Source of the DNA: Ruditapes philippinarum
Taxonomy: Eukaryota
NCBI RefSeq assembly: GCF_026571515.1
Contig: NW_026851633.1
Location: 434,001-498,000 of the forward strand
DNA length: 64,000 nucleotides
Direction of reading: 5' to 3'
The position numbers and the translations under genes are program-made. How positions within the stretch are numbered: position 1 is the stretch's first letter; each line of letters opens with the position of its first letter. The notes under the pieces were generated by a model. The model ran no database searches, had not been told where the DNA came from, and saw only the letters and a program-made list of their open reading frames with translations. Positions 43-63,462 of this stretch are shown here, one piece after another.

Positions 43-2680
43 ACAAGATATGTTTGTAAAACATGTATGCCCCCTATCAGCAGCCAATTATTCATGTGAT
101 AAGGTAATTATGCATGACTCCTGACCCAGTGATCAAACAATTAATAAGGGTTATCAAGTATCTACTGGTCATGACCTTGACCTTTGACCCCTTGACCCAA
201 AACTCAATAGGGGTCATCTGCTGGTCAAGACAAATCATCATACAAAGTTTGAAGTTCCTAGGCCTAAGCGTTTTTACTTAATTGATCAGAAACCGTTTTA
301 ACTTACAAGGTCAATGTGACCTTGACCTTTGACCCTTGACCCAAAATCAAATAGGGGTCATTTGCAGGTCATGACTAATCACCATGCCAAGTTTGAAGTT
401 CCTAGGCCTAAGGGTTCTTTTATTATTGATCCGAAACCGTTTTAACATACAAGGTTCAATGTGACCTTGACCTTTGACCCCAAAATCAATAGGGGTCATC
501 TGCTGATCATGACCAATCACTATGCCAAGTTTGAAGTTCCTAGGCCCAAGTGTTCTTTAGTTATTGATCAGAAACCGTTTTTACTTACAAGGTCGATGTG
601 ACCTTGACCTTTGACCCCTTGACCCAAAACTCAATAGGGGTCATCTGCTGGTCACCACCAATCATCATACAAAGTTTGAAGTTCCTAGGCCTAAGCGTTT
701 TTAGTTAATTGATCAGAAACCGTTTTTACCTACAAGGTCAATGTTACATGACCTTTGACCCCTTGACCCTAAAAACAATAGGTCATCTGCTGGTCATGAC
801 CAATCACCATACCAAGTTTGAAGTTCCTAGGCCTAAGGGTTCTTAAGTTATTGATCGGAAAGCATTTTTACCTACAAGGTCAATGTGACCTTTCCCTTTG
901 ACCCCTTAACCCCAAAATCAGTAGGGGTCATCTGCTGGTCATGACCAATCACCATACCAAGTTTGAAGTTCCTAGGCCTAAGGGTTCTTTAGTTATTGAT
1001 CGGAAACTGCTTTTACCTAAGAGGTCAATGTGACCTTGACCTTTGACCCCTTGACCCCAAAATCAATAGGGGTCATCTACTGATCATGACCAATCACATA
1101 CCAAGTTTGAAGTTCCTAGGCCTAAGGGTTCTTTAGTTATTGATCCGAAACTGTTTTTACCTAAGAGGTCAATGTGACCTTGACCTTTGACCCCTTGACC
1201 CCAAATCAATAGGGGTCATCTACTGATCATGACCAATCACCATATCAAGTTTGAAGTCCCTAGGCCTAAGGGTTCTTTCATTATTGATCGGAAACCGTTT
1301 TTACCTACAAGGTCAATGTGACCTTGACCTTTGACCACTTAACCCCAAAATCAATAGGGGTCATCTGCTGGTCATAACCAATCACCATACCAAGTTTGAA
1401 GTTCCTAGGCCTAAGGGTTCTTTTGTTATTGATCGGAAACCGTTTTTACCCAAGAGGTCAATGTGACCTTGACCTTTGACCGCTTGACCCAAAAATCGTT
1501 AGGGGTCATCTACTGATCATGACCAATCACCATACCAAGTTTGAAGTTCCTAGGCCTTAAGGTTCTTTACTTATTGATCGAAAACCGTTTTTGCTTACAA
1601 GGTCAATGTGACCTTGACCTTTAACCCCTTGACCCCAAAATCAATAGGGGTCATCTACTGATCATGACAAATCACCATACCAAGTTTGAAGTTCCTAGGC
1701 CTTAAGGTTCTTTAGTTATTGATCGGAAACCGTTTTTGCTTACAAGGTCAATGTGACCTTGACCTTTGACCCTTGACCCCAAAATCAATAGGGGTCATCT
1801 ACTTGTCATGACAAATCACCATACCAAGTTTGAAGTTCCTAGGCCTTAAGGTTCTTTAGTTATTGATCGGAAACCGTTTTTGCTTACAAGGTCAATGTGA
1901 CCTTGACCTTTGACCCCTTGACCCCAAAATCAATAGGGGTCATCTACTTGTCATGACCAATCACCATACCAAGTTTGAAGTTCTAGGCCTTAAGGTTCTT
2001 TAGTTATTGATCGGAAACCGTTTTTTGCTTACAAGGTCAATGTGACCTTGACCTTTGACCCCTTGACCCCAAAATCAATAGGGGTCATCTACTTGTCATG
2101 ACCAATCACCATACCAAGTTTGAAGTTCCTAGGCCTTAAGGTTCTTTAGTTATTGATCGGAAACCGTTTTTGCTTACAAGGTCAATGTGACCTTGACCTT
2201 TGACCCCTTGACCCAAAATCAATAGGGTCATCTACTTGTCATGACCAATCACCATACCAAGTTTGAAGTTCCTAGGCCTTAAGGTTCTTTAGTTATTGAT
2301 CGGAAAACCGTTTTTGCTTACAAGGTCAATGTGACCTTGACCTTTGACCCCTTGACCCCAAAATCAATAGGGGTCATCTACTTGTCATGACCAATCACCA
2401 TACCAAGTTTGAAGTTCCTAGGCCTTAAGGTTCTTTAGTTATTGATCGGAAACCGTTTTTGCTTACAAGGTCAATGTGACCTTGACCTTTGACCCCTTGA
2501 CCCCAAAATCAATAGGGGTCATCTACTTGTCATGACCAATCACCATACCAAGTTTGAAGTTCCTAGGCCTAAGGGTTCTTTAGTTATCACTCGGAAACCA
2601 TTTGGTCTACGGACCGACGGACCGACGGACCGACAAGTGCAAAGCAATATACCCCCTTTTTTTCAAAAGGGGGCATAATT
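43..2680 (-). mobile_element. Non-autonomous Helentron-type element (HINE/pearl/DTC84-like) carrying a tandem array, in the last intron of PACRGL
   Basis: Minus strand starts TTATGCCCCCTTTTGAAAAAAAGGGGGTATA (hairpin), followed by a GTCG/GTCC microsatellite (2608-2635) and ~17 units of ~145 bp. It ends GGGGCATAC...ATCTTGTT. The subterminal inverted repeat TATGCCCC/GGGGCATA is at 66 and ~2670. Confidence 0.85.
165..2600. repeat. ~145-bp tandem array (~17 units) with GTGACCTTGACCTTTGACC core
   Basis: The CAAGGTCAATG anchor recurs at 1598, 1743, 1887, 2032, 2177, 2321 and 2466, a period of 144-145 bp. Confidence 0.95.
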
Positions 2681-13802: not shown

Positions 13803-14520
13803 TATTGCATCCTAAGATTCATGTGAATTTATTATTGCATTCAGAATCATGTCAATTTCTTATTGCATCCGTAGATTCATGTTAATTTCTTATCTCAACC
13901 AGATTAATGCTAATTTCTTATTACATCTAGATTCAAGCTTATTCCTTATTAACTAATTTCTTATTGCATCCAACTTCATGCTAATATCTTATTGCATCCC
14001 AAGATTCATTGTAATTTCTTATTACATCCAGATTTATGTGAATTTCTGATCACATCCAACTTCATGTGAATTTCTTATTACATCCAGATTCATGTGAATT
14101 TCATATTGCATCCAGATTCATGTGATTTTCTTATTGCCTTCAGATTTATGTAAATTTTTACTATACCAAACTTCATACTAATTTCTTATCACATCCAGAT
14201 TCATGCTAATTTCTTATCACATCCAGATTCATGTTAATTTCTTATTACAATTTCATGCTAATTTCTTATCACATCCAGATTCATGTTGATTTCTTATCGC
14301 ATCCAGATCCCTGCTGATTTCTTATTTCATCAAGATTCATGTTAATTATTTCTTATTACAGTCAGATTCATGCTAATTTCTTATTGCATCCAACTTCATG
14401 CTAATTTCTTATTGCATCCCAAGATTCATGTTAATTTCTTATTGCATCCTAAAATTCAGATTTATGCTAATTTTTAATTGCATTCAGATTCATGCTAATT
14501 TCTTATTGCATCCAGAATAA
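13803..14520. repeat. ~28-bp minisatellite (~25 units)
   Basis: Consensus GATTCATGCTAATTTCTTATTGCATCCA is repeated head to tail with variants. Confidence 0.9.
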
Positions 14521-15132
14521 TGTTAAAATTTCATTGAAACCTTGGCATACAAATTATTTTGCTAAAAAAAGGGGATAGTTCCAAATATGTTGATTGTGAA
14601 TACTTATATATTTATGAAACCATTAATCTTTTTTCTTTTAAATATTCCCTCACCCATGGACGCATACAGCTGTAAAGAAATTAACTTTGACCACATTAAT
14701 TTTTAACTACCTGATGTTGGTATTTACCTTCTTAATGTCTGAGATCCATCACATGTAGTCTTCTGTCTAATTACATTTAAAGAGAATAATCTTTAACTTT
14801 CTGCAATGGATACATAAAGCAGCCTCATGTTCTTAGTCAGATTTTTTATTCATCTTTGATCTGATATATATCAAGGGTCTCTACCTTGAAACAACCAATG
14901 ATCATGTTGAAGGAGAAAACATGTTTGTATAAAAACAACATCCAAAACCCTAAATTGGTTGGTTGACAGGTGACACTTGAACTAAAAGAAACTCTTTGTA
15001 TGAGCATGGTCAGATTCGCTATTGTCTTTTTGTTCTTAATTAAAAGCACATGCTCAACATATTAATTAGTACAAGGCCATTACATTGAATATAATCAGAC
15101 AGACTCAGCTAATAAAGGAATTGTATCAATTA

Positions 15133-34822: not shown

Positions 34823-36838
34823 TTTTTATACGCCCGTTTGAAAAACGGGACGTATTATGGGAACGCCCCTGGCGGGCGGTCGGGCGGCGTCCAATTTTGT
34901 CCGGAGCATATCTCCTACATGTATGGAGGGATTTTAATGAAACTTCATAGAAATTTTCACCACTATGAGGAGCAGTGTCGCGCACATGAACCAGGTCTCT
35001 AGGTCAAAGGTCAAGGTCACACTTAGAGCTCATTGAAAAATGCTTGTCCGGAGCAAAACTTCCACATGTATAGAGGGATTTCAATATTACTTGGCACAAA
35101 TGTTCACCATTGTGAGGCGGAGTGTTGCGCGCAAGATTCAGGTCCTTGCGGCCAAGGTCAAGGTCACACATAGAGGTCAAAGTTCAGATAAAAATATTAA
35201 GATGTGTATATGGACCATTTAGTCATCATTTATTGAGGGATTGTAACACAAATGGTCATCATCAAGACTATGGCTGTGATACATATAAATTTGGGACAAT
35301 ATATACAAGGTTCAAAGGTCACTAAAAGATGATGAAATATCCAGATTTTGTCCCGAGCATATCTCCTACACGCATGGAGGGATTTTTAATGAAATTTCAA
35401 TAGAAACTTTCACCATTATGAGAAGCCATTTCACGCACATGAACTAGGTCTCTAGGTCAAAAGGTCAAGGTCAACGCTTAGAGTTTCAATTGAAAAAAAA
35501 AAACAAAAAAAAACAAAAAACGCTTGTCTGGAGCAAACTTCAACATGCATAGAGGGAAATTTCAATATAACTTGGCACAAATGTTCACCACTGTGAGGCG
35601 GAGTGTCGCGCACAAAACTCAGGTCCCTGCAGCCAAGCGTCAAGGTCATACACAGAGGTCAAAGTTTAGATAAAAATATGAAGATGTGTATAGGGACCAT
35701 TTAGTCATCATTTATTGATGGATTGTAGCACAAATGGTAACTATCATGACTACAGGTGTGACACATTTAATTTAGGTTAATATTTGCAAGGTCAAGGTCA
35801 CTGGAGATGATTAAATATCCAGATGTGTATAGGGACGATTTAATCAACATTTATTGAGGGATTGTAACACAAATGGTCATTATCATGACTACGGCTGTGA
35901 CACATGTACTTTAGGTCAATATATGCAAGGTCAAGGTCACTTAAGATGGTGAAATATCCAGATTTTGTCTGGAGCATATCTCCTACATGTATGGAAGAAT
36001 TTTTATAATACTTTATGGAAATGTTCACCACCATAAAATATGTATTGCTCCATGCATGATCCAGGTCTCCAGGTCAAAGGTCAAGGACACACTTAGAGCT
36101 CATTGAAAAACGCTTGTCCGGAGCAAAACTTCTAGGGGATTTCAATATAACTTGGCACAAATGTTCACCATTGTGAGGCTGAGTGTCGCACGCAAAATTC
36201 AGATCCCTGCGACCAAAGTCAAGGTCACACATAGAGGTCAAAGTTCAGATAAAAATTTGAAGATGTGTATAGGGACCATTTAGTCATCATTTAGTGATGG
36301 ATTGTAGCACAAATGGTAACTATCATGACTACAGGTGTGACACATTTAATTTAGGTTAATATTTGCAAGGTCAAGGTCACTGGAGATGATTAAATATCCA
36401 GATGTTGTCCGGAGCATATTTTCTACATGCATGGAGGAATTTTAATGTTACTTTATAGAATTGTTCACCACCATGAGACGTAGTGCCCTGCACATGAACC
36501 AAGTCTCTAGGTCAAAGGTGAAGGTCACAGTTAGAGCTCATAGAAAAACGCTTGTCTGGAGCAAAACTTCTACATGCATAGAGGGATTTCAATATAATTT
36601 GGCACAAATGTTCATCATTGTGAGGCTGAGTGCCGTGCATAAAATTCAGGTCCCTGCGACCAAGGTCAAGGTCACACATCCTGTGCATATCTTCCCTACT
36701 GATTTGTTTTAAGGTTCATTTAACAAAACAGTGCCAAGAATAAAAACTTGCTTGCTAGATAACACTTATCCATAATGCCCCCATCTCCATCTAAAGCTTT
36801 CGTAAACGGGCGTATTTTGTGACTATGGCACCCTTTTT
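34823..36838 (+). mobile_element. HINE element with higher-order internal array
   Basis: 5' TTTTTATACGCCCGTTTGAAAAACGGGACGTAT hairpin, GGCG microsatellite, 12 monomers of three types with an AGGTCAAGGTCAC core, and 3' AAACGGGCGTAT subterminal IR plus a short hairpin. Confidence 0.85.
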
Positions 36839-39367: not shown

Positions 39368-42300
39368 ATGGGCGGAATTCGAGTGAGAAATCTTCCAAAA
39401 AATGTGACAGAGAAACATTTGAAGATATATTTCTCCAAACGAGAGAATGGCGGCGGAAAAATCAAGAAAATATACTACCCACTCTTCAACAATGATGCTG
39501 TTATTCTGTTTGAAGATAAGAAAGGTAAGATTATAATACATAATGTATGAAGTAAGAAAATAAGATTCCTATTTGAATGTAAGGTTACTTTTGATAAAGT
39601 ACCCAATAATAGCAGTCTAACTCTTACATTATGCTGACTGTAGTCTTTTGTTAACTGGATACCACTTGCATCGAAGTTTTTCTCTAAAATCCGGAAGGTA
39701 GCACTGTGCAGCTTACTCTGAAAGAAAACAGGCAGTAAAAATCTCTTAAATCAAGCTTTTATCGCCTATACAGCATTTGTATTTATACAAAACTAAATTA
39801 CTGATCAACATTGGATTACAAAGATATGTGCTTGTTAGTATCTGATGTAGAATTCCAAGAGAAAAGGAAGAAATATCAGTACTGAACGTACTGGAAAGTT
39901 GGACAATAACTAAGCATACATTTATAGAACATGTATAAACAACAACAACTGTTGATGCTCTCAACTTTATTAAGTGTTTTGTATGCTCTTAAATGTGCTA
40001 CATGCATATCAATGTTGATTAAATGCTGTAAATAAATGTAATTATCTACAGTATTACATGATTAACCCCTAAACACGATCATATTACCCAGTATTGCCCA
40101 CTTTAGGGAGTATTGCCCAGTTGGCTGGTACTGAAAAATTTAAGGCTGGCATTAGATTTGCATGATTGGCATTTAAGGTTGGCATTAGAATTGCATGATT
40201 GAAAGCTGGCAACAGACTTGTTTCCAAATAAAACGACTATGCTCTGAAATAATGTGTGTACAATATGAAAATTCTTAGCCCTAGAGATAGCTGATTTGCT
40301 TTAAACTAAGATATGCACATGTTTTGCTAAAAAAATACAGCAGGCATCGTGACCCTTCTCTAGAATAAGGCACAGTTAAGCATGCTGCATGCATGATAGG
40401 TTTTGCTTTAAAATAAAGTAGACTGCTTCTGTGTCTAGAATAAGGCAGGCAACAGCTTTGCTTTTAAATATTGCAGGCCACAGCATTGCCCAAATATCAA
40501 TTGGTGAAATTGCTCTCTAAAATAAGGCAGACAGCAAAGTTTCTCTGAAAATTAAAGAGTTAACAGTTTTTACTTAAATGTTTCAATAAGTCTGTAATTT
40601 TTCTACACCCGCACAACAAAGTTGTAACAGGTGTATACTAGAATCAGCTCGTCCGTCCGACCGTCTATCAGTTTTTCCTTGTCCGCCCAATAGCTTAAGA
40701 ATCCTTTGACCCACAGTCTTCATATTTGGTTTTGAGATTGATCATGATAAGTATATGACCCCAGTTGATTTTGAGGTCACCAGGCCTAAGGTCAAGGTTA
40801 CAAGGACTTTGACTATAAAAAAACATGTCCACCCAGCCATAGTCTTCAAATTTGGCATGGAGGCTAGTCATGATAATTAGATGACCCCTCTTATTTTTGA
40901 GGCCACTGGGTCAAAGGTCAAGGTCACATGGGCCTTGACTTCAAAAAGCTTGTCCGTTCAATTGCTTTACAATGCTTTGGTCAACTGTAATTTAACCTTT
41001 TACCCCCATGAGCATATTGCGAAAAATGACCGTTTTCATTGAAAAGCCTCCTGTAACAAGTTCAAACTGCTATTAAACTATGAAAATGCTTCAATACTGA
41101 TGAAACTTGGCACAAATGTTGACTAAACCATAGCCTCTGTAACAGCATGCTCAATCGTAAATTTCCTGTGAACATGGCAACGGGGGGACGTCTCAAAATT
41201 GCCAAAAATCACAAGGGAAAAGGTTAATATTGAGGTTGGTAATGACTAGTCGATGACCTTTTTTGATTTTGAGGTCACTAGGTCAAAGTTCAAGGTCAGA
41301 AGGGCATTGACTAAGAAAGCTTGTCCATCCCATAACTTAAGAATCCTTTGACCAACAATTTTCATATTTGGCATGGAGGCTAGACATGACCATAAAATGA
41401 CCACTATTGCTTTTTAGGTCACTGGGTCAAAGGTCAATGTCACAGCGGCCTTAACTTAAAAAGCTTGTCCGCCCAAAAACCTTAGAATCCTTTGACCCAC
41501 ACTTGTCATATTTAGCATGTAAGTTGATCATGACCATTAGGTCTAGGTCACATGGGCCTTTAGTCCAAAAAGCTTGTCCGCTCAATTGATTAAGAATGCT
41601 TTGAGGTCAGGAAGTCAAAGGTTAAGGTCACTTTGAATCTTTACCACTAAAAACATGTAGAATACATATCATAACTTAGAAATGCACTGACTCACTACCC
41701 TCAGATTTGGTAAGGAGGTTGTCTTTGAGCTCTAAATGACCACTGTTGATTCGGTTGTCTTTGAGCTCTAAATGACCACTGTTGATTCTGACAAATTGGT
41801 ATGCGGGAGTATTTAGGCCATGGCAGTGGGAGTTCTAGTTGTATTTATTTTTGTACTCATTTCAGTTATTGACAGTATTCTGAAGATTGAACATCGTTTT
41901 GTTGTACAGGAACTTCCAGAACACATGGTAAGTAATTAACTGCCTTTATATTATATCTTCCATTGTCTGAATTAAGAGAATAAGTTATCTTTTCTATTGT
42001 TTGAATGATTGAATTATGATTAACTTTTCTTAACTTTATCATTTATTTTTGGAAAGGATTCATGCTCGGACAAAACAACAAGTGTGACTAGACAGACCTA
42101 TTAAAATTAAAAACAGAAAAAACTTAATTTCTTTTCTTTAATTTTCTTTTTAAAGATTTGTTTAAACTGTTAATTTGTTTGCTTTTAGAAAAAGTAAAAA
42201 AAGACAAGCGTTGCCCCCGCCTGGCGGTGGCTCTTGTTATATTATATGAATAACCTATTGATATTATGATGATGATATTTGTGTAATAAAGCTGTATGTC

Positions 42301-49690: not shown

Positions 49691-50548
49691 TTTTTTAGCT
49701 CGCCTGTCACAAAGTGACATAGTGAGCTTTTGTGATCGCTTTTCGTCCGGCGTCCGGCTGTAAAGTTTTACTTTAAACGACATCTCATCATAAACATCTG
49801 AGCCAATTTCATCCAAACTTCTTTGGTAGTCAACTTTAAAAATTGTTCAAAGAATTTAATTCCATGCAGAACTCTGGTTGCCATGGCAACCGAAAGAAAA
49901 TCTTAAAAAATCGAAATAGCTAGAGCTTAAATATTTGGTATGAAACATCATCTAGTCAGTGTCTACCAAGTTTGTTCAAATAAAAGCCATGGGATCAAAA
50001 TTGGCCCCGCCCCGGGGGGTCATTGATTTTCCTTATTTGTATATAGTAGAAACTTATAAAATCTTCTTTTAAAAATCCCAAATAGCTAGAGCTTAGATAT
50101 TAAGCATGAAACATTATCTATTGGGTGTCTACCAAGTTTGTTCAAATAAAAGCCATGGGGTCAAAATTGGCCCCATCCCAGGGGTCATTGTTTTTCCCTT
50201 GATGTATATAGTAAACACTTAAAAAATCTTCTTTTAAAAAACCCTAAGAGCTAGAGCTAAGATATCTAGCATGAAACATCATCTAATGAGTTTCTACTAA
50301 GTTTGTTCAAATAAGGGCCCTGGGGTTAAAATTGGCCCCGCCCCGGGTGCCATGGATTTTCCTTATTTGTGTATAGTAAAAACTTAAAAAAATCTTCTTT
50401 AAAAAACCCCCAAAGGATTAGAGTTAAGATACTAATCATGAAATATCTTCTAATGAGTGTCTACCAAGTTTGATCAAATAAAAGCCTGGGATCAAAATTG
50501 GCGCCTATATACAGGTGAGCGATTTCAGGGCCATCATGGCCCTCTTGT
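49691..50548 (+). mobile_element. HINE element with ~4 monomers of ~160 bp
   Basis: 5' TTTTAGCTCGCCTGTCACAAAGTGACA hairpin, GTCC microsatellite, AAAATTGGCCCC anchor at ~49997, 50163, 50327 and 50494, and 3' CAGGTGAGCG...AGGGCCATCATGGCCCTCTTGT hairpin. Confidence 0.85.
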
Positions 50549-50708: not shown

Positions 50709-51020
50709 TTTTTTTATGCTTCCCGAAAAATTTCGGGGGAGCATATAGTCACCTGGTTGTCCATCAGTTAGTCCGCACTACCGAATAGGGATAGGGGGCC
50801 ATCTAACTGTAAACAAAACAATAGAGTTCATTCCGTAACAATAGAGTAAGGGGCCATTGGCCCTCTATTAAACAATAGAAATTAACAAAAGAAATGGCCC
50901 CTTATTCCATTTCGGCCGGATGTCTGTCTGTACGTACATACGTCCCGAATTTGTGTCTGGCCCATAACTTTGTTATTTGAAGACGGATTTTATAACTATT
51001 TCACAGAAATGATCACCATA
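50709..51020 (+). mobile_element. 5' part of a HINE (resumes at ~63327-63460), with nested MITE 50781-50915
   Basis: TTTTTATGCTTCCCGAAAAATTTCGGGGGAGCATA hairpin and microsatellite. The monomer GGCCCATAAC.TTGTTATTTGAAG.CGGATTTTA.AACTATT reappears at 63414-63455. Confidence 0.7.
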
Positions 51021-51029
51021 TGATCACCA

Positions 51030-52860
51030 AGTAATAATCCTGGTAATTATCGCGGCATATCTATTACAAATACATTATATAAAGTCTTCCATGAATCTCA
51101 GGCAGGATTTAGGCGTGGTTACTCGGCTATCGATAATGTTTTTTGTCTACAAGCAATGGTTCAAAAATATCTTTCTAAAAAGGGTGGCCGCTTTTACTGT
51201 CTCTATGTTGATTTCCGTAAAGCATTTGATAAAGTGAATCATTCTAAACTTTTCTTGTCACTTGAAAAAAGGGCGTTTTTGGAAATTTTCTTCGAGTTCT
51301 GAAATCAATGTATTTTCATCTCTCTTCATGTGTTAAAACAACTGATTTGTTTAACAATGTTATGATTACTGAATTATTTCCCTGTAACATTGGTACAAGG
51401 CAAGGTGATAAGACAAGTTCAACAATTTTTACATTATTTATAGACGAGTTATCTTCCCTTTTAAGAGAGAAATGTGGCACAGGCATTTTCATTACAAATG
51501 ATATTCCTGATATTCTTTGTTTAATGTTTGCAGATGATGTTGCAAATTGTGCTGAAACTGCTACAAAATTACAACAACAACTTAATGTAATTGATCAATT
51601 TTGCTGGAACACAGGCATGGAAATTAATCTTGACAAAACAGAGATAATTGTATTTCGAAATGGAGGTCGTCTTCGTAATTATGAATCTTGGTCTTTTCGC
51701 GGTCAGCCGGTAAATACAACTGCTGTTTATAAATATATGGGTTTGTTATTCACTCCACAACTATCATGGAATGTAGCTCATGATAAATTAGCTTCACAAG
51801 CTCAAAGAGCAATTTTTGCTATCAAAGGTTATGAAAAACCATTTGGTAATTTTCCCATAAAGGAACACTTTAAAATTTTTGATACAATGATCAAACCTAT
51901 TCTTTGTTATGGATCACAGATTTGGGGGTATGAATTTAGTCCAACTATAGAATCTGTTCATAATATGTTCTGTAAGGGTTTATTAAATGTTTGAAAAAAT
52001 ACAAATACAAGCATGGTGTTAGGTGAATGTGGTAGACTCCCACTTTGTATTACTTATTATACAAATTGCATCCGTTATTGGTGTAAGCTATTAGTTATGC
52101 CACCATACCGTTACCCAAAACAATGTTATTTAATGTTAAAATCACTAGATGAAGCTGGAAGAACTTGTTGGGCTAGCAAAATACGAATACTTCTGTACAG
52201 TTACGGATTTGGTTACATTTGGATTTCTCAAGAAATAGGAGATGTGAATATTTTTGTTAGCATTTTTAAACAACGCATAATAGATTGTTATACCCAAAAT
52301 TGGCATGATAATATTAACAATGCCAGTAGATGTCACCATTATTGTTATTTTAAAAGCTTATTAAATGTAGAACGGGATCTTCTAATAGAAATCCCTGTAA
52401 AACATAAGAAAGCATATGCTAAATTTCGATGTTCAAATCTCAAACTTAATGTTGAAATCGGTAGGCATTTAAATATACCTTTTCAAGAACGCTTTTGCAA
52501 CTTTTGTCTTGAAAATCATTTAACTTATCATATTGACTGTGAATATCATGCTTTTTTTCATTGTAAAAAATATTTAGAAATTAGAAATACCTATTTACTA
52601 AACTGGTATAATTCCGGAAATGAACTACATAACTTTTATGAATTACTTTCATCAAATGATATTTTTATAATTAAGAAAATCTCTACTTATATTTACCACC
52701 TCATGATATCTATAGCACAGTAGCATTTAAATGTAATGATTGTAAAAACTTGTAAAAGACACAACTTTATAATGTTAAATACCATATTTTGTATGACATG
52801 TATTTTGGGCCGGTGGCCTTTATTTACTGAATAAATCTTTTGACTTGACTTGACTTGACT
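51030..52860 (+). mobile_element. 5'-truncated non-LTR retrotransposon (RTE-X-like), disrupted RT ORF
   Basis: NYRGIS, ESQAGFR, VDFRKAFD, GTRQGD, LMFADD, YKYMG; C-terminal LGECGRLPL and CNFC..EYHAFFHC. There is a frameshift at ~51272, an in-frame TGA at 51992, and AATAAA followed by a (TTGAC)4 tail. Confidence 0.9.
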
Positions 52861-53035
52861 ATGAGCCGTGTCACGACAAAACCAACATAATGATCAGGGC
52901 TTACATACCCTATAACAAGTAGAGAAACTGATAGCGAACAGCATGGACCTGATCAGACTGCGCGGATGCGCAGACTAGTCTGGATCCATGCTGGTCGCAA
53001 ACCCATTATGTTGGTTTTGTCATGACGTGGCTCAT
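52861..53035. mobile_element. MITE with ~32-bp TIR
   Basis: ATGAGCCGTGTCACGACAAAACCAACATAATG ... CATTATGTTGGTTTTGTCATGACGTGGCTCAT. Confidence 0.85.
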
Positions 53036-53056
53036 ATAATGTTTTCAACTCAATAC

Positions 53057-54253
53057 TGTGATGTTTTCGGGGGAAGGAAAGATAGCCGTTGTTCGAACCT
53101 AGAGGGGAAAACTCCGACCTGTGGGTGCCTTGATAGAATAATTTCAGATAAACTACAAAGAGCTTGTTTTAAGAACAAAAATGATTTATTTTATTAAGTA
53201 ATCTAAAGATGTGTAGTAAGATGAAGTAGAATCTATAAATAAATTATCAATAAAATGATGACTGTTAGTTATTGTTAGTAAAAGTAAATGTTAGTAAATG
53301 TTAGTTAATGTTAGTTACATTCGTTCCATCATGAACTCCAATTCAGAAAATAGGATCTACTAGGTGATGAAATAAAGCTCAGCTCTTGTAAGTTGTATCC
53401 AGTGTAGATGCCTAGTATCAACTTGTCGTAGATCTATAACGTTTAACTGAGGATTCCTATTAATTAACCAAGTAAAAAGAAACTAAGTAAAATGATTAGA
53501 CTTAAATGATCTCTCCAGTGACCGAATCCAGTAAGCTGAAGGATAACACCGTACCGGCAATATATTGAAATTCCCCGCGTTAGGAACTTGTATATTATTG
53601 GGCACCTAAGCACAGCTAACGCTCTCATCCACTCAGATTGCGGAACGTCCATTTTGGCGCCAAAGCCCTCCATATATCGACCAATGGCTAGCCGTTCGAC
53701 TCCTACATCTAAAAGAAATAGATCCGAACAGGCCACGACGATTTCCAATAAAATCCCCATATCTGGTTGTCTAAGTAACCAATATTATTTACCTAATTTA
53801 GTACTATTTTAACCCAAACATTCTGTTCCGGAATTGATTAAGAATTTAGTCAAAACCAAGCATGCACTGTGACGTCACAATTGACACAAAATGAAAGTAA
53901 ATTAAGTTTGCATTTCCTGATAGAAATAAAGAGTCACCATGCATGTCATCAACTATTTGTAAAAGGTATATTGTCACTGAAATGTATAGTTTGTATACAT
54001 GCATTTATTGCATCATATCCGTTAATTATAAATATGATAATACGAAATGTCATTAGTTTTCACGATCTGTCAAATTTTGCCGGTGTTTTAAAAACAGCTT
54101 TCTCTGCATACCCTGAGTATCACATACCCAGTAAAACTTATCAATGTTATGGTTTTAACTGTTTAAAGCATTTGTAATTTATAATGATGTGTTACATGTG
54201 TAAGAAAGAGTTCTATAACGGTAAACAAAAGGGGGGGGGGTATTCATATTACA
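53057..54253 (-). repeat. 3' LTR of the Gypsy element
   Basis: TGTGATG...ATTACA; direct repeat of 62114-63312; adjacent PPT. Confidence 0.95.
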
Positions 54254-54266
54254 CTCTCCCCACCTT
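54254..54266 (-). other. Polypurine tract
   Basis: Minus strand AAGGTGGGGAGAG immediately precedes the 3' LTR. Confidence 0.85.
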
Positions 54267-54596
54267 AGTTAAAGTAATCCTCCTGGATTACAATCTTAAG
54301 AACCTTAGAAAATAACTTAAGAAATAAGAAACAAACAATTGTACACGGTTTGAACCATCTAAACATGTGAAAGCAACAATTTACATATGAATAATACAGT
54401 ATATTTAACAACAATAAATACATTTGAGCAGAATCAAATTCATGCAAATATCTCATGTAATGTCATGAGAACAACAAATTTAAATTAGTTATTTACTCCC
54501 CAGCCATTCTGAAACAACATCATTATTTTATCAAATTCAACAACCAACAGTATTTTTAAAGTTTCACTTTCACGCCCCCTTCCTCCAGTACTTTGA

Positions 54597-56340
54597 TTAT
54601 ATCATCCGTCTCGGTTCAACGCTCGGCTTTTTTCCAAGGATTTTACTATAGCCCAGGCTTGTTTGTGAGTCTGGGATTTCACCTTTGATAATTCCCCTTA
54701 GATACGAAAGATTATATTGCCGAATTTTGTCTGGAATCTTTTCACTTTCGCTAGTACTTGCCAATGGCTTATCCTGACCGTCAAGCATTAAGAAGGCATA
54801 CTTGTCACAGAGTAATTTTTTAGATATGACTGGGAATTCCACATTATTTTTCCTTTCCAAAAAAATAACGCCATCTGTTCCATCGCAAAGAGCCGGTTTT
54901 TCTGGTGTCAACTCCCGCCAATTCCTGGGTGGCCACTTCATCTGTACATCGCCAACGTCTATCTCAATTTCTCTCGACCAAATCCTTCTACCAGGGGAAC
55001 AAAGAGGCATCACGCCAGTCAACAAAAGTTTTGCTGCCCTGCTTCCCAATGTTGATGGTGAATCGTTTACTTCACTTACAGATGATGACCCTGATGAAGA
55101 ACTAACTTGTTGAAAAAGAGTCTTCGTTTTCCGGGCTTCCATGCCCTACTTTTTATCCCCCGTATACTTCCCCTAGCACTAACACCTTTGTCCTGTTTAT
55201 CCTCTTTAATGCTTGATTCATTTTCAGTGGCTCCCCAAAAACGTCTCCCCTAATCCATCACCTATACTATCCTTTGATTTAACGTAAGTCCCCGTGTTTA
55301 ACTCTTTTTCAAATCGTCTGAGTCAAGTATCGGCAGAAAACTCCCCTGTCCTATAATTTAAACGCATTGATATGTCTACATTTTCTCCAATAGTCAAACA
55401 ATTTCCGTCTTCCTCTGGTCCAACTCTGCCTTTTTCTGTATCCTTCATTTCTCCTAATAATGTGTTAACCGCCGCTTCTGTTTCGTTCCTTTCCTCAGCC
55501 ACTTCACAGTCAAACTCATACTCATAAAAATCCTCTGTCTTCTGTCTCTGCTCTGCGTCCCCTCTTTCTGTTATGCTTTCTTTTTCTACTTTGTTCTTCG
55601 TTTTTGTTCATGTTCAGTATCCATTTTCTCTCGCCTGTCTACATCTAATGCACTTTGTTTATTGTTGTTTGCGTCTTTTTCCAATGATTTATGTTCTTTA
55701 TCAACTTTTTCTAATGTCTTTTGTTTCTTGTTAATGTCATTCTCTATGCAGTCTGTATATCTCTTTCCTCTCTTCCACTGTTGCAAGATTTCTCTTCCTT
55801 TCTATTTGTTATTCTACCCGGCCGTTCACTACTAACTGATCTACCCTACGATCCTTTTTCTTTGAACACTCCTCCCCCTCCTTCCAACCTTTGTTTAACC
55901 TGTCTAACCTTTCCTTTTTATCATCAAATCCCTCTGCCCAATTTCGGAACTCCTTCCTGATAGAATATGCCAATTCACTTCCATATGGGGTAACCGACTC
56001 AGTGACCTTTGCATAATCTATTAGGCTTCAATGCAAAGTAAAACCCTGCCTGACGGGAAAAACATCTCTTTGCTCCTCCATGCCTCATCAGTGTGAGCAC
56101 TACCCCTGACATGACTTTCTAAGTCCGAGATTCTAGTGAATGTCTTTCTCCTTTCCGGGACACCATGGACATACTACTGTCAGACACCGGTGGGCAGAAC
56201 CAATAAGATGCGACTTCAGAGCTCCCCAGGTGCGGAACATCGCAGGACAAAGCCAACATGATTCCCTGTAAAGAACGCCTTCTGTTAGATTTGTTAGTTA
56301 TGTATTTTTTATTTCTTTCAGGACACACAATGAAACATTT
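54597..56340 (-). CDS. Gypsy accessory ORF(s): tandem C2H2 zinc fingers, K/E-rich region, C-terminal domain of unknown function (frameshifted)
   Basis: Manual translation gives CWLCPAMFRTWGALKSHLIGSAH and CPWCPGKE/KTFTRISDLESHVRGSAH (56093-56258). Further fragments lie at 55586-55786 and 54597-55142 (KWPPRNWRELTPE). The start is uncertain. Confidence 0.7.
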
Positions 56341-56744
56341 ATTGATTAAATTTTGTAACTGCAAAAGAAAAAATTTAGGTTGGCCACCCACAGGAGTTGC
56401 GACGAAGACTATACCTGCTCTGCTAAAAAAAACGCGGAAGACTCCATTGTGAAGAATTTACGTTTCCGATATTTTTGTAATTTATTCAAGTTTTATAAAA
56501 AGGTTTTTATTTTTACACATGTTGCCTGTTGAACATAAATAAAAATTTAACACAATTTTACATATGTTGTCTGTTGAACACATATACATTTATTTTATTT
56601 CATTTACTGTTATGTTTTACATAGTTCTATGCATAAATTAACTGTGATATTTTTTTTTTTTACATTTGTATTGTTTATTAACATATATCTATAACACAAA
56701 AATCAAATTCGCGAACACGTGACCAATTCCTTAAACTATCTATC

Positions 56745-59700
56745 CTACATGTCATAACATTGTTTCTCCTTTCTAACCCAACTAGGGACCTTATTACCAC
56801 AGTAGGGATATAATCTATCAATGTGATAAAGCTTTTGGTTTGCCAGTTGAAGTCCGTTTTACCATACAAACCAAATCGTCTACAGTCCTTGTCACTATGA
56901 ACGGTCCTTTCCATTTGTTGACGAGTTTCGAGCTGACTCCGACTTTCCTTGTTGGGTCGTGTAGCCAAACCAACTGCCCTTGCGAATATGCACTGCGTTT
57001 CCGAGATTTGCAGTCATAATGCTTCTTTTGGTATCTAGCTGCAACCTTCAAATTTGTCCTTGCAATATCATGACAGTTTTTCAGTTTGTCTTCAAGATTC
57101 AACACATACTCACTTAAGTCTGAATTGTTTTCCGGCTTAGGACGGCGATAAATGCATGCATTGGTAACCGTGATCTCTCTACCAAACAACACATCTTATT
57201 TGGACTGAGTTTTGAACTACTATGCGGAGAGCTACGTAGGCCATCATTACTTGTTGAAGGTAAGCTGTCCCAGCAATTTCTGGTTGATCACTGCAATATT
57301 GCTTTCCAGCATCGAAATCAGAGGGTTTTAATTAAAAAACCTCAACTTTAATCCGTTGGCCTGGGGCCGTAGGGAAGTAGCATGTGTCTTTTCTCTAAAT
57401 CTAAAAGCTTGCATAGTTCTTTTCCAAAGTTTTGACTCAAAAACATTTTTCCTTGGTCCGTTATATATCTGTAAAGGCACGCCAAATCGGCATATGTACG
57501 TTTTCAACAAGTGCTTTTAGCAACCGTTTTTTGATTCTATTGTTCATGTAAAAGCAAAACACTTTCAGTCCATTTTGTGAACCAGTCAGCCATGACAAGG
57601 ATGTACTTGTTTCCATTGTTTGTTGTAACCGGAAGTGGTCCAAGAATATCCATCATTAGCCTCTTCCTGGTTCCCCAACAAAGTATTGTCCAAGAGGAGC
57701 CTTATTTTTCGCAGTTCTTTGAAATTTTGCTGCTGCACATTTGTCACATACTTGACAATATCTTTTAACAGTATCAACCATCCCGGCCAATAGAATGATT
57801 GTCTGATCTTTCCAAGTGTGTTTCTCTATGCCGAGATGTCCATTGCATTTGGTAGTCGTGTGGCGATGATGTCTAATAACATCGCGTTGTCTATCCTTTG
57901 GGGTAACCAGTTTGATAAATTTGGTCTCTATCGTCAGTTTCGAAATTTCCGATATAGCAAGTTCGCAAACTATTTCCAATCGATCCCATTGCCGCCATAA
58001 TGTTTTCAAATAAGAGGAATAAGCAGAAATGTCAGTCCAAGCTGGTCCTTTTGTTTACCATCCTGCAAGGCCAATTTTTTTATCTTCGCTATGTCTAAAT
58101 CTTGAGTTTGGCTTGATTGATAAATCAATTTAGGGTCCCCATCCGTCTAAGAGAAAGTGATTGTTTGACAATGCAGATGATGCATCCTGTGTCTGACTTC
58201 TGGTAGAGATCCTGATATGTTCTTCCTTGTATTCATCTGACGGTTTTTGTTATATTTTCTCAAAGTTATCTTGTATCTCTTGTTTTGGTGTTTACATGAT
58301 TTACATGGCCTTCTGGAGAGTGCATCTTGCATTTGCATGGCTCTTCCACTTCGGTGTACTACGGTTAAATTATACGTATTCAATTCCTGTAGCCATCGAG
58401 CAACTTGTCCTGTTGGAACTTTTTAAGGATCCCCATCCAACTGACAGCTGCATTATCAGTCCCTTAAAAGATACTTTCCCTGGCCATACAGATAAACTGT
58501 GGAAATGTTTCAAAGCCACCACAACTGCCTAGCATTTCTTTTCTGGTTACACAGTAAGACTTTTCATGCACATTCATGGCTTTGCTCAAATATGCAATTA
58601 CTCTTTCTTTACCATCTTGCATTTGACTTAGCACAGCTCCAGATGAAGAATCAGAAGAATCAGTATCAAGTATTAAATGGTGCACCTAATACCGGCGATA
58701 TGCAAGTATTAGGCCGTTGTAGTCAGTGCATTTTTCAACCTGCGTCGAATGACTCCTGACACTCGTTTGTCCAAATAAAACCTGACTGCTTTTCTCACAC
58801 AGAGCTTGTGCAACGGTTCTAGCCACGTTGAAAAGCCTTAACAAACTTTCGGTAATTAGAAGCTAACCCAAGCAAAAACTGCGCATTTCCTTGCTGTTCC
58901 TTGTGTAGGCCAATCATGCACAGCCTTGAATAATTTTCTCAGGGTCCGTTTCAATGCCCTCCTCCTGATACGACATGGCCAAGGAAACGTACAGATTTCT
59001 GGAAGAATACACATTTGATGGTTTAAGCTTTAGTTTTGCCTCGCGAAGTCTTTCGAAAACATGCTCTAGACGACATAAAACATTGATCAACCGATTCCCC
59101 AGGAGTTTATTATATCATCCATGTATAGAAGAGATTCAACCCACTGAATTCCTCTTAAAACTGTTTCCATTAGCCTTTGGAAAGTCGACCGGTGAATTAA
59201 CAAGACCAAATGCATGACACGAAAATGAAATAAACCTTGGCTACTTTGTAGAAAATGCTGTCTTCATTTTGTCTTTCTTCTTCCATTTCTATTTGCCAGA
59301 AACCACTACAAAGGTCCATGGTGTTGAAACCATTTGGAACCAGAAAGAGAATCAAAGACAATCATCTACCCTAGGTATTGGGATATGCATCTTGAACAGT
59401 CACTTCATTTAGTTTTCGGTAATCAATGCAGAATTCTAGTTTGAGCCGTCCTTTTTCGACACAAGTACACATTGGCCGAGGACCAAGGGCTGTTCGAAGG
59501 CTCGATTATTCCCTCTGTCAAAGCATTTTGTTTACTTCCTCAGATTTCAATATCACGTTTTCCATAAGGTTTGTCTTCTAACTGATTGTCGTATGGGTGG
59601 GGAACTTCCTGTGTTGATCTTATGTTTTACCATATTAGTACATCCAAGGTCATCAGAAACCTTTCGAAAAAGACGTCTTGATATTTGTTAGAGCAATGTC

Positions 59701-60680
59701 GCAAATTTTTCCTTGTCACTTTCTTCCAAATTTTCTTTCCCCTTGTCAAACATTGACTTTATATGATCCGGTAATAGTTATCTTGCTTGGCTTTTTCCTT
59801 GATCTTTACCCCCGCTGTACATTATTGCAGCACATGTATGAGTTTTGTCATTGTCAAAAATTCATGTCTCCTGATACTTCCTGTGTTGGATAACACTGAC
59901 CTATTTCTTGACCACTTTTCAAAGTATACACAGCCTCACTCTCATTCATAACTCCTATAAATGCCCTCAATTCGATGGGGATCTAATAAACCGTTGATTA
60001 ATCTTTACTTCATCTATTTGTTCACCTTTTGTCTCACTTATAAACGCAACTTCAGGAAGCATTTGGTGTCTCAATATTCTCACTGGCACTAACATGCATG
60101 TGTTTGATGGCACTTGTATGTCACTCTTAACAGTAACTCTACATACTCTATTGTTATCATCCTTCATCATCCTACATTGTATTTTATGTCCACTTCTAGT
60201 ACCAAGCTCCAACGTTTCAAGGTCCCAATGTTTGATATTTCCCATTATAAAATCCTGTCCCAAAGAGGCCTGGCAATGATATATCACATACGATGAGAGT
60301 CATTTTAACTTTGAATGGTCCAAAAACCCTATTTCTACCTCTATCTGGCCATGTATTGTGATATTTGTTCCATTCACTGATTGAACATTAATTTCCTTCT
60401 ATCAAGTGGATATGTGCCTTCTCCTCCGCATTGCTCATATGTTTCTTTAGATATCAAAGATGAAGTAGCGCCACTGTCAAGCAGAAAGTCTATATGATAG
60501 TTGTTCATGCTACCCCCTATATATAGTCCATTATCTTCAGAAATTTGTTTAACTTCTACCTGGCCAATTCTAAATGGCATATTATTTTTTGAATGTTGTT
60601 TCACAATGACTAGGTCGATTTCCCTCCATCTCAACCTTCGTCATCTCACGACCTAACGAGATGACGGCTTGAAGTTTTCC
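56745..60680 (-). CDS. pol: Gypsy pol (protease, RT, RNase H, integrase), many frameshifts
   Basis: FLLDSGAT (PR), LLYMDDII at ~59110-59130 (RT), LILDTDSS..GAVLSQ and DALSR (RH), GHLG..CDKC (IN zinc-binding), ICRFGVP, WKGPF; ends YHIDRL...*. Confidence 0.92.
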
Positions 60681-61570
60681 TGGTTCCTTAGGTGGGGTTT
60701 GTTTTGTAACCTATTCTTTTGTGGACATTGTCTCCAAAAATGATCCCTGGCCCCACATGTAAAGCACGATCTGTCATTTACAGGCTTCCTATCAGTTGTC
60801 TCAAGTTTATCCAGGCGTGCCTCTATCCACTGTATAGCTCCTTTTATAGTCTTAAGTTCTGTGTCTTCTTTGAAGTCTGCAGGTTTGACATCTCTCAACT
60901 TTTCAGAGGACTACACCTCTTATCAGTCCTGCAGATGTGGTTGCTCTCCCTAGCACATCCTCGTATCGTTCGACTATTTCTACTGCTTCCCTGATTGTTC
61001 TACAACTTTTATCCATCAGTCTACACCTCATTTCCGGTGAAAAGCTCTTGTAGAAATGTTCCAGTGCTAGCATCTCTTGAGCCACTGGATCAAGTGACAC
61101 GTATGCTTTTGAGCATACAGCCTAATCTCATCTCCAAACTCGGCAACTGTTTCATTCTTTTGTCTAGTACGTGTCTGAATTCTGGATAGCCATCGGTTAG
61201 CCTGTCTTTTGCTACCAAATCTTTGTTCCAGATGATTAGTAAGAACTTGGTATGACCTTTTTTGATGTGCTAATGAGCTATAATGAAGCCTGGCCTGTCC
61301 CTTAAGTGCTGTTGCTAGGTAAAGAAGCTTCTCTTTGTCCGACCATTCTGCAAGTTCTGCACAGTCCTCAAAGTAGGCCTGGTACAAATCCCACTCTTCT
61401 TCCCCAGTATAAGGATCAGGCTTTATATTTGGTGCATGGCGTCGTACATAATGTTCCCTAGGAATGTAGCATGGTCTCTTTCATCACCCATATCTCCTGA
61501 CTCATCATTCCCACCTGGATGATTCATATTGAAATTGACTTCAGAATCCGAATTCATGTTGATCTGCCAT
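60653..61570 (-). CDS. gag: Gypsy gag (frameshifted)
   Basis: KPDPYTGEEEWDLYQAYFEDCAELAEWSDKEK..L..RFG..Q..ETVAEF; CCHC knuckle CFTCGARDHFWRQC; ends QENFKPSSR*. Confidence 0.9.
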
Positions 61571-61681
61571 ACTTAAAATAATTATTTGAGCTTCTGGTAA
61601 ATAAAGATATGAAGAAATAATAAAAGAAAACACAAAGTTTTTTTTTTTTAAGTATCTTGTATTATGTAAGATATGCTAAAT

Positions 61682-61995
61682 TCGGATCCGAACAGGTGTG
61701 CGGAATCGAACGGGTGTACGGCGTCGAACAGGTCCACGGATCCGAACAGGTGTACGGAATCGAACGGGGTGTACGGCGTCGAACAGGTCTACGGATCCGA
61801 AACAGGTGCACGGAATCGAACGGGTGTACGGCGTCGAACAGGTGCGCGGATCCGAACGTGTGCACGGCGTCGAACAGGTCCACGGATCCGAACAGGTGCA
61901 CGGAAATCGAACGGGTGTACGGCGTCGAAACAGGTGCGCGGATCCGAACAGAACGGGTGTGTGGATCCAAACAGGTGTGCGACGTCGAACGGGTC
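61682..61995. repeat. CpG-rich 18-bp-unit tandem array (54-bp higher-order unit) in the Gypsy leader
   Basis: Cycle CGGATCCGAACAGGTGTG / CGGAATCGAACGGGTGTA / CGGCGTCGAACAGGTCCA, about 17 units. Confidence 0.92.
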
Positions 61996-62092
61996 TAGAA
62001 CCTTTTTCTCCAAAGTTTATCTCTCTAATCCTCCCCAGTCCAAAATAATCTCTACGTCCAAAATTGGTCCGTAATTTTGAAAATATATCAAA

Positions 62093-62112
62093 ATCCCACT
62101 TCTCTGACACCA
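62093..62112 (-). other. Primer binding site (tRNA-Leu type)
   Basis: TGGTGTCAGAGAAGTGGGAT 1 nt after the 5' LTR. It equals the tRNA-Leu-type PBS TGGTGTCAGAAGTGGGAT plus a 2-nt insertion. Confidence 0.8.
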
Positions 62113-62113
62113 G

Positions 62114-63312
62114 TGTGATGTTTTCGGGGGAAGGAAAGATAGCCGTTGTTCGAACCTAGAGGGGAAAACTCCGACCTGTGGGTGCCTTGATAGAATAATT
62201 TCAGATAAACTACAAAGAGCTTGTTTTAAGAAAAAAAAAATGATTTATTTTATTAAGTAATCTAAAGATGTGTAGTAAGATGAAGTAGAATCTATAAATA
62301 AATTATCAATAAAATGATGACTGTTAGTTATTGTTAGTAAAAGTAAATGTTAGTAAATGTTAGTTAATGTTAGTTACATTCGTTCCATCATGAACTCCAA
62401 TTCAGAAAATAGGATCTACTAGGTGATGAAATAAAGCTCAGCTCTTGTAAGTTGTATCCAGTGTAGATGCCTAGTATCAACTTGTCGTAGATCTATAACG
62501 TTTAACTGAGGATTCCTATTAATTAACCAAGTAAAAAGAAACTAAGTAAAATGATTAGACTTAAATGATCTCTCCAGTGACCGAATCCAGTAAGCTGAAG
62601 GATAACACCGTACCGGCAATATATTGAAATTCCCCGCGTTAGGAACTTGTATATTATTGGGCACCTAAGCACAGCTAACGCTCTCATCCACTCAGATTGC
62701 GGAACGTCCATTTTGGCGCCAAAGCCCTCCATATCGACCAATGGCTAGCCGTTCGACTCCTACATCTAAAAGAAAATAGATCCGAACAGGCCACGACGAT
62801 TTCCAATAAAATCCCCATATCTGGTTGTCTAAGTAACCAATATTATTTACCTAATTTAGTACTTTTTAACCCAAACATTCTGTTCCGGAATTGATTAAGA
62901 ATTTAGTCAAAACCAAGCATGCACTGTGACGTCACAATTGACACAAAATGAAAGTAAATTAAGTTTGCATTTCCTGATAGAAATAAAGAGTCACCATGCA
63001 TGTCATCAACTATTTGTAAAAGGTATATTGTCACTGAAATGTATAGTTTGTATACATGCATTTATTGCATCATATCCGTTAATTATAAATATGATAATAC
63101 GAAATGTCATTAGTTTTCACGATCTGTCAAATTTTGCCGGTGTTTTTAAAAACAGCTTTCTCTGCATACCCTGAGTATCACATACCCAGTAAAACTTATC
63201 AATGTTATGGTTTTAACTGTTTAAAGCATTTGTAATTTATAATGATGTGTTACATGTGTAAGAAAGAGTTCTATAACGGTAAACAAAAGGGGGGGGGGGT
63301 ATTCATATTACA
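62114..63312 (-). repeat. 5' LTR of the Gypsy element
   Basis: Direct repeat of 53057-54253; adjacent PBS. Confidence 0.95.
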
Positions 63313-63462
63313 ATACGTACAATACAATATTGAGACGACGTGTCACGGGCAACATTTGGGTCGCTTCCTTGGAGGTCAAGGTCACAGCATGACCTTGCAG
63401 CAAAATCATGTCCGGCCCATAACGTTGTTATTTGAAGTCGGATTTTACAACTATTATAGAAC

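Follow-up and report, generated by a model that had tools for sequence, protein, structure and literature searches.

In a Ty3/Gypsy lineage for which all named hosts are bivalves, a third gene lies on the same strand as gag and pol, 0.5 to 0.8 kb past the pol stop and before the polypurine tract. We recognized it in a complete element within a 64,000-nucleotide stretch of Ruditapes philippinarum DNA (the window). The gene encodes a soluble protein with two C2H2 zinc fingers and a conserved C-terminal domain, which together represent an apparently undescribed protein family. We have very little doubt that the gene is genuine and belongs to the element, and its product quite probably binds nucleic acid. 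An earlier sequence-only reading of the window had proposed a conserved non-env gene at the env position, with a predicted and likely nucleic-acid-binding product, and our results support that proposal.

The host element

The Ty3/Gypsy element occupies positions 53057-63312 on the minus strand, with two long terminal repeats (LTRs), a primer-binding site, a polypurine tract, and a target-site duplication all present. The 5' LTR (62114..63312) has TG...CA ends; aligned with the 3' LTR (53057..54253), it is identical in 1193 of 1202 columns, and the differences comprise 8 gaps and 1 substitution. The left copy of the 4-bp target-site duplication lies at 63313..63316, and its letters recur at 53053-53056. 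The primer-binding site (62093..62112), which we take to be tRNA-Leu-like, immediately follows the 5' LTR; a comparable site is present in a related locus (L003:415). The leader contains a CpG-rich tandem array of 14.4 copies of an 18-bp unit (61689..61951), where the observed/expected CpG ratio is 1.73, compared with 0.83 in the LTR and 0.43 in the flank. The array is followed by gag with a CCHC knuckle (60653..61570) and pol in the order PR-RT-RH-IN (56745..60640), both broken in this copy. Pfam matched gag to DUF1759 above the cut-off and to Retrotrans_gag and zf-CCHC below it, and matched the protease and integrase of pol. The pieces of the window pol map in order onto the unbroken pol of three related loci (L001, L003, and L004), and Pfam recovered the PR-RT-RH-IN order in L001 and L004. 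A polypurine tract (54254..54266), read from the sequence, abuts the 3' LTR.

Small indels break every reading frame of the window element. Because gaps outnumber substitutions between the LTRs, these breaks look like assembly error. A 3.2-kb contig of run X5 across pol differs by 123 gaps versus 31 other letters, and 10 of the 12 indels listed (174 further rows exist) are common to at least three of four runs. Most of the frame breaks thus look like long-read or assembly error and, since the LTRs are also nearly identical, the element is young.

G/A-run motifs, presumably of the slippery-site-like type, occur at the gag-pol overlap in three related loci (L001 ~1262, L003 ~1685, and L004 ~1425) and in the window (~60680), which suggests −1 frameshifting there. 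Just outside the element, broken non-LTR retrotransposon frames lie on the plus strand (51013-52723) and are, we assume from their motifs, reverse-transcriptase-like. Contig depth marks the element flanks (52900-53056 and 63313-63455) as very high-copy repeats. Tandem or satellite-like arrays are found elsewhere in the window (67-2671, 13815-14571, 34875-36679, 40678-41516, and 49903-50516), with units of ~145, 28, and 165 bp; inverted relatives of the 145-bp array occur near 41 kb.

The third gene in the window copy

Between the pol stop (56747-56745) and the 3' LTR (starting at 54253) lies a gap of 2.5 kb, as the sequence-only reading had stated. That reading had placed a gene at 54597..56360; a gene is there, but similarity to an unbroken natural homologue puts its limits at ~54556 and ~56265 on the minus strand. 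The homologue, P0001 (JGI), is a natural, unbroken protein of 556 aa, and 521 of its 556 residues fall in exact 7-mers shared with the window. Because this unbroken natural protein matches the region, the third-gene reading frame is not due to chance. The peptides quoted earlier are all present in the order given: finger 1, finger 2, and then an aromatic segment, a K/E-rich tract, and a Trp/Pro segment. The single 1-nt slip that had been postulated was an underestimate, as the whole gene contains 15 frame changes relative to P0001, one of them inside finger 2. The start of P0001 has been called at a Met inside finger 1, and the window gene has no in-frame ATG in the interval from the upstream stop to its first cysteine.

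The claim that the gene is not env was borne out by hydropathy, which revealed no transmembrane segment; the maximum 19-residue value in P0001 is 0.92, and a value of 1.6 is reached in only 7 of 73 long homologues (as judged by hydropathy alone). We found no homology to viral fusion proteins among the Pfam matches or the fold-search matches listed. The lack of a transmembrane segment by hydropathy likewise argues against a fusogen of the sORF2 type. Proteins of the sORF2/FAST-like class are described as having 60-210 aa and one transmembrane helix (10.1101/2025.03.14.642691), and this candidate was ruled out for a protein of 556 aa without a hydrophobic segment.

Protein family, hosts, and genomic context

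A family profile built from the C-terminal 164 residues of three proteins was searched against 1.84 billion representatives at a threshold of E<=0.001, yielding 213 clusters at 50% identity. Our analyzed set (n=152) comprised the best 150 of these 213 clusters plus P0001 and P0002; 73 of the 152 homologues are at least 400 aa long, and 35 have both fingers complete. Word-index protein searches returned few matches (3, 1, and 4), and the ESM Atlas gave no usable match for the C-terminal domain and only matches <0.9 for P0064. The named hosts, available for a minority of the 23 clusters looked up, are the bivalves Mactra antiquata, Mytilus species, Mercenaria mercenaria, and Dreissena polymorpha. 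Mactra has 8 near-identical gene models on 6 contigs that differ in length, and clusters of 15 members occur in Mytilus and Dreissena; clusters of 8 to 15 near-identical members on separate contigs are as expected for a mobile element. In a tree of 56 C-terminal domains, the window protein belongs to a subclade of six proteins (support 100/98). Two database models are chimeric, joining the C-terminal domain to a Gypsy protease (P0047) or a Gypsy integrase (P0059).

No third-gene locus was found in scans of viral_contigs and genome_contigs or in a first metagenome scan. A further metagenome scan recovered 11 loci, five with >5 kb of upstream sequence and four too short upstream to judge the gag-pol context. 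The sequence-only reading had asked whether homologues always follow pol; this holds for four of the five long loci and fails for L008. In L001, L003, L004, and L005, gag-pol lies directly 5' in the same orientation, separated by 630-760 nt from the third-gene start, and pol is unbroken in three of these four loci. The order in L005 is LTR, primer site, gag, pol, third gene, purine tract, and LTR; in L002, a purine tract and an LTR-like start follow 64 nt past the third-gene stop. Upstream of L008 (10 kb) and L009 (1.7 kb), we found decayed pieces and no gag or pol match, and L008-L010 are mutually 84-94% identical. All of L008-L011 are decayed copies in one metagenome, two of them without nearby gag or pol, and they possibly represent a non-autonomous deletion derivative in which the third gene was retained.

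Selection and divergence

The third gene is only ~26-30% identical among L001, L003, and L004, compared with 52-54% for pol. The main argument for coding selection is that, at this level of identity, frames of 480-560 codons stay open and retain invariant motifs. When L001-L005 are compared, the N-terminal domain shows identities of 0.45/0.56/0.33 at codon positions 1/2/3 (fourfold sites, 0.35); the corresponding values are 0.45/0.57/0.34 for the C-terminal domain (fourfold sites, 0.29) and 0.35/0.47/0.27 for the linker, a pattern that protein-guided alignment partly produces or inflates. Synonymous sites are near saturation at this divergence, which is beyond the range for estimating dN/dS. 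The sequence-only reading had named as contrary outcomes a frame that is not conserved among copies, a neutrally decaying host fragment, or a match to a described env or accessory family. We found instead a gene conserved across elements, a coding-selection pattern, and only weak, generic C2H2 matches in Pfam.

Domain architecture

HMM searches and structure prediction gave two confidently predicted domains in the third-gene product and no Pfam family beyond weak C2H2 matches. On the minus strand of the window, the aromatic, helical part of the N-terminal domain (55865..56092) is followed by a charged, low-complexity linker, delimited by composition, with basic clusters and an acidic-aromatic patch (55060..55864), and a conserved C-terminal domain of ~165 aa (54556..55059) that is found in 213 clusters and belongs to no known family. 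In an AlphaFold2 model of the homologue P0013, computed with 65 sequences, residues 10-150 and 330-497 are confident (pLDDT ~95; pTM 0.44), and the linker is predicted to be disordered (pLDDT <50 over most of its length). The helical N-terminal part is thus confident in the model and is present in 60 of the 73 homologues of at least 400 aa (from the best 150 of 213 clusters plus two). The N-terminal domain is basic, with a median net charge of +6 in 35 proteins. Among 65 members, Pfam matched zf-C2H2 in 15, zf-C2H2_jaz in 2, and zf-met in 1; the matches are weak, and all those in the first of the tested members fell under the curated cut-off.

Modeled alone, the C-terminal domain is predicted to form a beta-hairpin plus helices (pLDDT 93.9; pTM 0.83). 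It matched no Pfam family, and a fold search of 48161 chains gave a best Z of 4.7, with none at or above 5; the best Z for the whole model was 4.4. Foldseek searches of viral and PDB libraries returned nothing at E<=0.001. The lack of a clear match does not in itself establish a new fold.

The linker differs among subclades. A further conserved domain of ~110 aa lies inside it in 46 of the 73 long members, including the third genes of L001-L005 as well as P0046, P0057, and P0064. By eye from the alignment, this middle domain is predicted to consist of three strands followed by helices, and a search with its profile recovered no relative of solved structure (best E 0.21). The window subclade lacks the middle domain and has a charged, low-complexity tract in its place. 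A K(K/R)x(K/R) basic cluster occurs in the linker of 41 of the 73 long homologues, a raw count without background. Members of the window subclade also have an acidic-aromatic patch in the linker (window ~55540-55500, P0001 234-250, and P0002 216-232), which we take to be reminiscent of acidic activation motifs.

Zinc fingers

Finger 1 (56190..56258, minus strand) has the pattern C-x2-C-x12-H-x5-H, based on sequence and homologue alignment. Finger 2 (56093..56171, minus strand), identified by sequence, Pfam, and alignment, reads C-x2-C-x15-H-x5-H and contains one internal frame change; the x12 spacing between Cys and His given for it earlier is incorrect. Both fingers do end in GSAH with H-x5-H spacing as had been described, but this is a peculiarity of the window element and not a family trait. 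Among the 35 homologues with both fingers, finger 1 has H-x5-H in 20 and H-x4-H in 13, and finger 2 has H-x4-H in 33, with 14-15 residues from Cys to His in most. An x15 spacing with H-x4-H is found in 25 of 35 second fingers, and a 12-residue spacing is found in 1. The fingers are separated by 6 residues in 34 of 35 proteins, and these residues are mostly hydrophobic.

The H-x5-H spacing had been taken to favor RNA-binding fingers of the matrin/U1 type. This is defensible for finger 1, where 20 of 35 proteins share the C-x2-C-x12-H-x5-H pattern of matrin/U1C/JAZ fingers, as far as these are described (PMC9508840, PMC9775027). Finger 2 is unlike them, with 14-15 residues from Cys to His, H-x4-H, a gap of 6 residues between the fingers, and a Pfam preference for zf-C2H2; the matrin pattern occurs in 0 of 35 second fingers.

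Base-reading positions are variable in finger 1. In finger 2, position −7 from the first His is Arg in 36 of 48 sequences, and position −4 is Asp in 37 of 48 and Glu in 8 of 48. In the C2H2 code as outlined in PMC12264921, the −7 and −4 positions read the 3' and central bases, respectively, with Arg reading guanine and Asp reading unmodified cytosine; the predicted finger-2 target under this code is therefore N-C-G. This conservation favors a protein that would bind DNA rather than RNA. Alternatively, the Arg-Asp pair may form a structural salt bridge. The best sequence matches of the profile to solved structures were ZNF524, ZBTB17, and CTCF, with the ubiquitin ligase KCMF1 also listed, and such matches are biased toward DNA-binding fingers because these dominate the structure database.

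Classical DNA-binding C2H2 arrays use a TGEKP-type linker. The third-gene fingers share with such arrays the charged or polar base-reading residues of finger 2 (Asp or Glu in 45 of 48) but lack both the 12-residue finger-2 spacing and a TGEKP-type linker. A hydrophobic linker of just 6 residues, together with conserved aromatic residues, points toward a packed double finger and away from a classical array. In a search for shared words of 6-8 nt in four LTR-like regions, counts were at the shuffle level and no CpG word was enriched. Tandem arrays of the leader type were found in none of the five related loci tested, and binding to the leader array cannot for that reason be a family-wide function.

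Expression signals

Directly before the third gene, a motif scan identified candidate branch points and a 3' splice acceptor (56266..56297, minus strand); the acceptor-like signal at 56266 has two branch-point-like motifs and matches L001-L005 in position and phase. In each of the five loci whose start is intact, a pyrimidine-rich CAG precedes the ATG by 1-4 nt; under acceptor criteria set post hoc, 35 of the 786 ATGs in these loci qualify. Five database proteins are called from an inner Met near finger 1, and in four of them the translation of an acceptor-like sequence stands just before the Met. In the window subclade, the stretch from the acceptor to the first cysteine contains no start codon, so an upstream exon would have to supply one. 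Using rough weights, we found no conserved splice donor of matching phase in the 5' regions, gag included. Contigs of X15 (an RNA library) and X1 (RNA by our guess) are unspliced through the acceptor. Both end at 56552-56555, where DNA runs go on, which is a weak hint of an internal transcription start nearby. X15 spans the third gene but leaves gag-pol uncovered, and X1 has greater depth over the third gene, as judged from contigs of runs chosen with this stretch. Another pyrimidine-rich, acceptor-like signal lies shortly 5' of the gag start in the window (~61600-61590) and in L003 (~580-592) and may mark a leader intron.

Possible functions

We tentatively propose, giving it somewhat less than an even chance, that the third-gene protein binds DNA and regulates transcription of its own element. 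The gene would be expressed from its own subgenomic mRNA, entered via the acceptor just before the frame; the donor may be located within the LTR or leader, or else past an internal promoter. The protein would be nuclear, with finger 2 and the helical domain binding the element's own DNA, and the linker and C-terminal domain would recruit host factors that raise or protect element transcription; the nuclear location, DNA binding, and recruitment are the parts of which we are least sure. It would act like foamy-virus Tas or plant VANC without belonging to either family. A narrower version, which we consider unlikely, is a sequence-specific transcription or anti-silencing factor, with finger 2 reading an unmethylated CpG triplet in the CpG-rich LTR or leader while the possibly new fold of the C-terminal domain recruits activators or blocks methylation.

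A less likely alternative is a Rev/CERV-like export factor, a nuclear protein made from a spliced mRNA that would bind unspliced genomic RNA and take it out of the nucleus, as an element with a splice acceptor requires. The conserved acceptor-like signal implies that genomic RNA would keep an intron, and the CERV protein of Cer1, which comes from an LTR-retrotransposon spliced mRNA and also has structured domains and flexible linkers, is described as having such a role (PMC10309623). The fit of finger 1 to the RNA-binding pattern points the same way, but finger 2 is not matrin-like and keeps DNA base-reading positions, the few zf-met and zf-C2H2_jaz matches are outnumbered by those to zf-C2H2, and the cysteine loop and gag-shared exons of CERV are not seen here. 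RNA would also be involved if the protein suppressed small-RNA or double-stranded RNA (dsRNA) silencing, with host RNA pathways and not element DNA as its target. JAZ-type H-x5-H fingers are reported to bind dsRNA (PMC9775027), and the faster divergence of the third gene relative to pol is expected under conflict. However, finger 1 alone fits the JAZ-type pattern, and faster divergence would also be expected wherever an accessory gene encodes a disordered linker, leaving this explanation improbable.

We give similarly little credence to a cofactor of the integration complex or particle, with fingers that tether integration to chosen host DNA or a C-terminal domain that binds Gag or integrase. 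Retention alongside gag-pol in four of five long loci and the pairing of a likely DNA-binding end with a conserved second domain would suit such a cofactor, but the protein is encoded by a separate gene behind its own acceptor and not as a pol extension. That the gene is a neutrally decaying captured host fragment or an envelope-like fusogen is barely credible: the window copy is heavily broken and the gene does occupy the env position, but unbroken homologues exist in many elements, conservation refutes neutral decay, the breaks resemble long-read error in both the LTRs and the pol contig, and hydropathy values are too low in P0001 and in all but the few long homologues noted above.

Comparison with known systems and implications

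Regulatory accessory genes mark complex retroviruses. Foamy-virus Tas binds DNA, and to our knowledge C2H2 fingers are not part of it; VANDAL elements are plant DNA transposons. Tas is described as the product of a regulatory gene with an internal promoter (PMC7828637). The third gene is comparable in its proposed regulatory role of transactivation, in its place near the 3' LTR, and perhaps in having a promoter of its own, but Tas is retroviral and is encoded after a true env, and the third gene is set apart from it by description. The VANC proteins of Arabidopsis VANDAL transposons are reported to be anti-silencing proteins (PMC5735166); they are alike in being element-encoded, with a proposed binding to their own DNA, and the window element has a leader tandem array, but arrays of this type are absent from five related third-gene loci. 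We regard both VANC and Tas as analogies only.

Accessory genes in Ty3/Gypsy elements have been described in the Tat clade and in fungal chromoviruses (PMC2774666). In Drosophila gypsy, an errantivirus, env is described as a third open reading frame expressed from a spliced subgenomic mRNA (PMC4276936). Our gene shares the position between pol and the 3' LTR and, as proposed here, a spliced subgenomic mRNA, but encodes a zinc-finger protein with no evident signal peptide, fusion peptide, or transmembrane anchor. CERV of Caenorhabditis elegans Cer1 is the one worked-out animal LTR-retrotransposon case found in the literature searched. It is described as having a leucine zipper, a C4-type loop, a G-protein-like domain, and exons shared with gag, with no obvious homology beyond nematodes in that account (PMC10309623). 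Likenesses to the third-gene protein include a length of ~500 aa, an animal LTR retrotransposon as host, flexible linkers, a putative zinc-binding motif, and a spliced mRNA, the last proposed here for the third gene. Compared by description, the third-gene protein differs in its two C2H2 fingers and in being encoded wholly past pol, and no G-protein fold was among the fold-search matches listed for the C-terminal domain.

No description of the third-gene family was found in the freely available literature searched, and Repbase, subscription journals, or supplements may already annotate this frame. The terms "orf" and "zinc" are absent from the main text of PMC6238403, on mollusc LTR clades, and the available portions of PMC10886601 and PMC12440569 do not mention this gene. 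Many family members are carried in public annotation as host C2H2 genes, and P0140 (XP_045198590.2) is publicly named "gelsolin-related protein of 125 kDa-like." Members annotated in bivalves as host "C2H2-type domain-containing" or "hypothetical" genes inflate zinc-finger gene counts.

The family is large, with 213 clusters at 50% identity, and resides in young, multi-copy clam and mussel elements, and one or two domains of its protein belong to no known family. If the protein does read CpG, animal retrotransposons would have an equivalent of VANC and Tas. The third gene offers a direct test case for how retrotransposons lacking a virus-derived env control their own transcription or RNA export.
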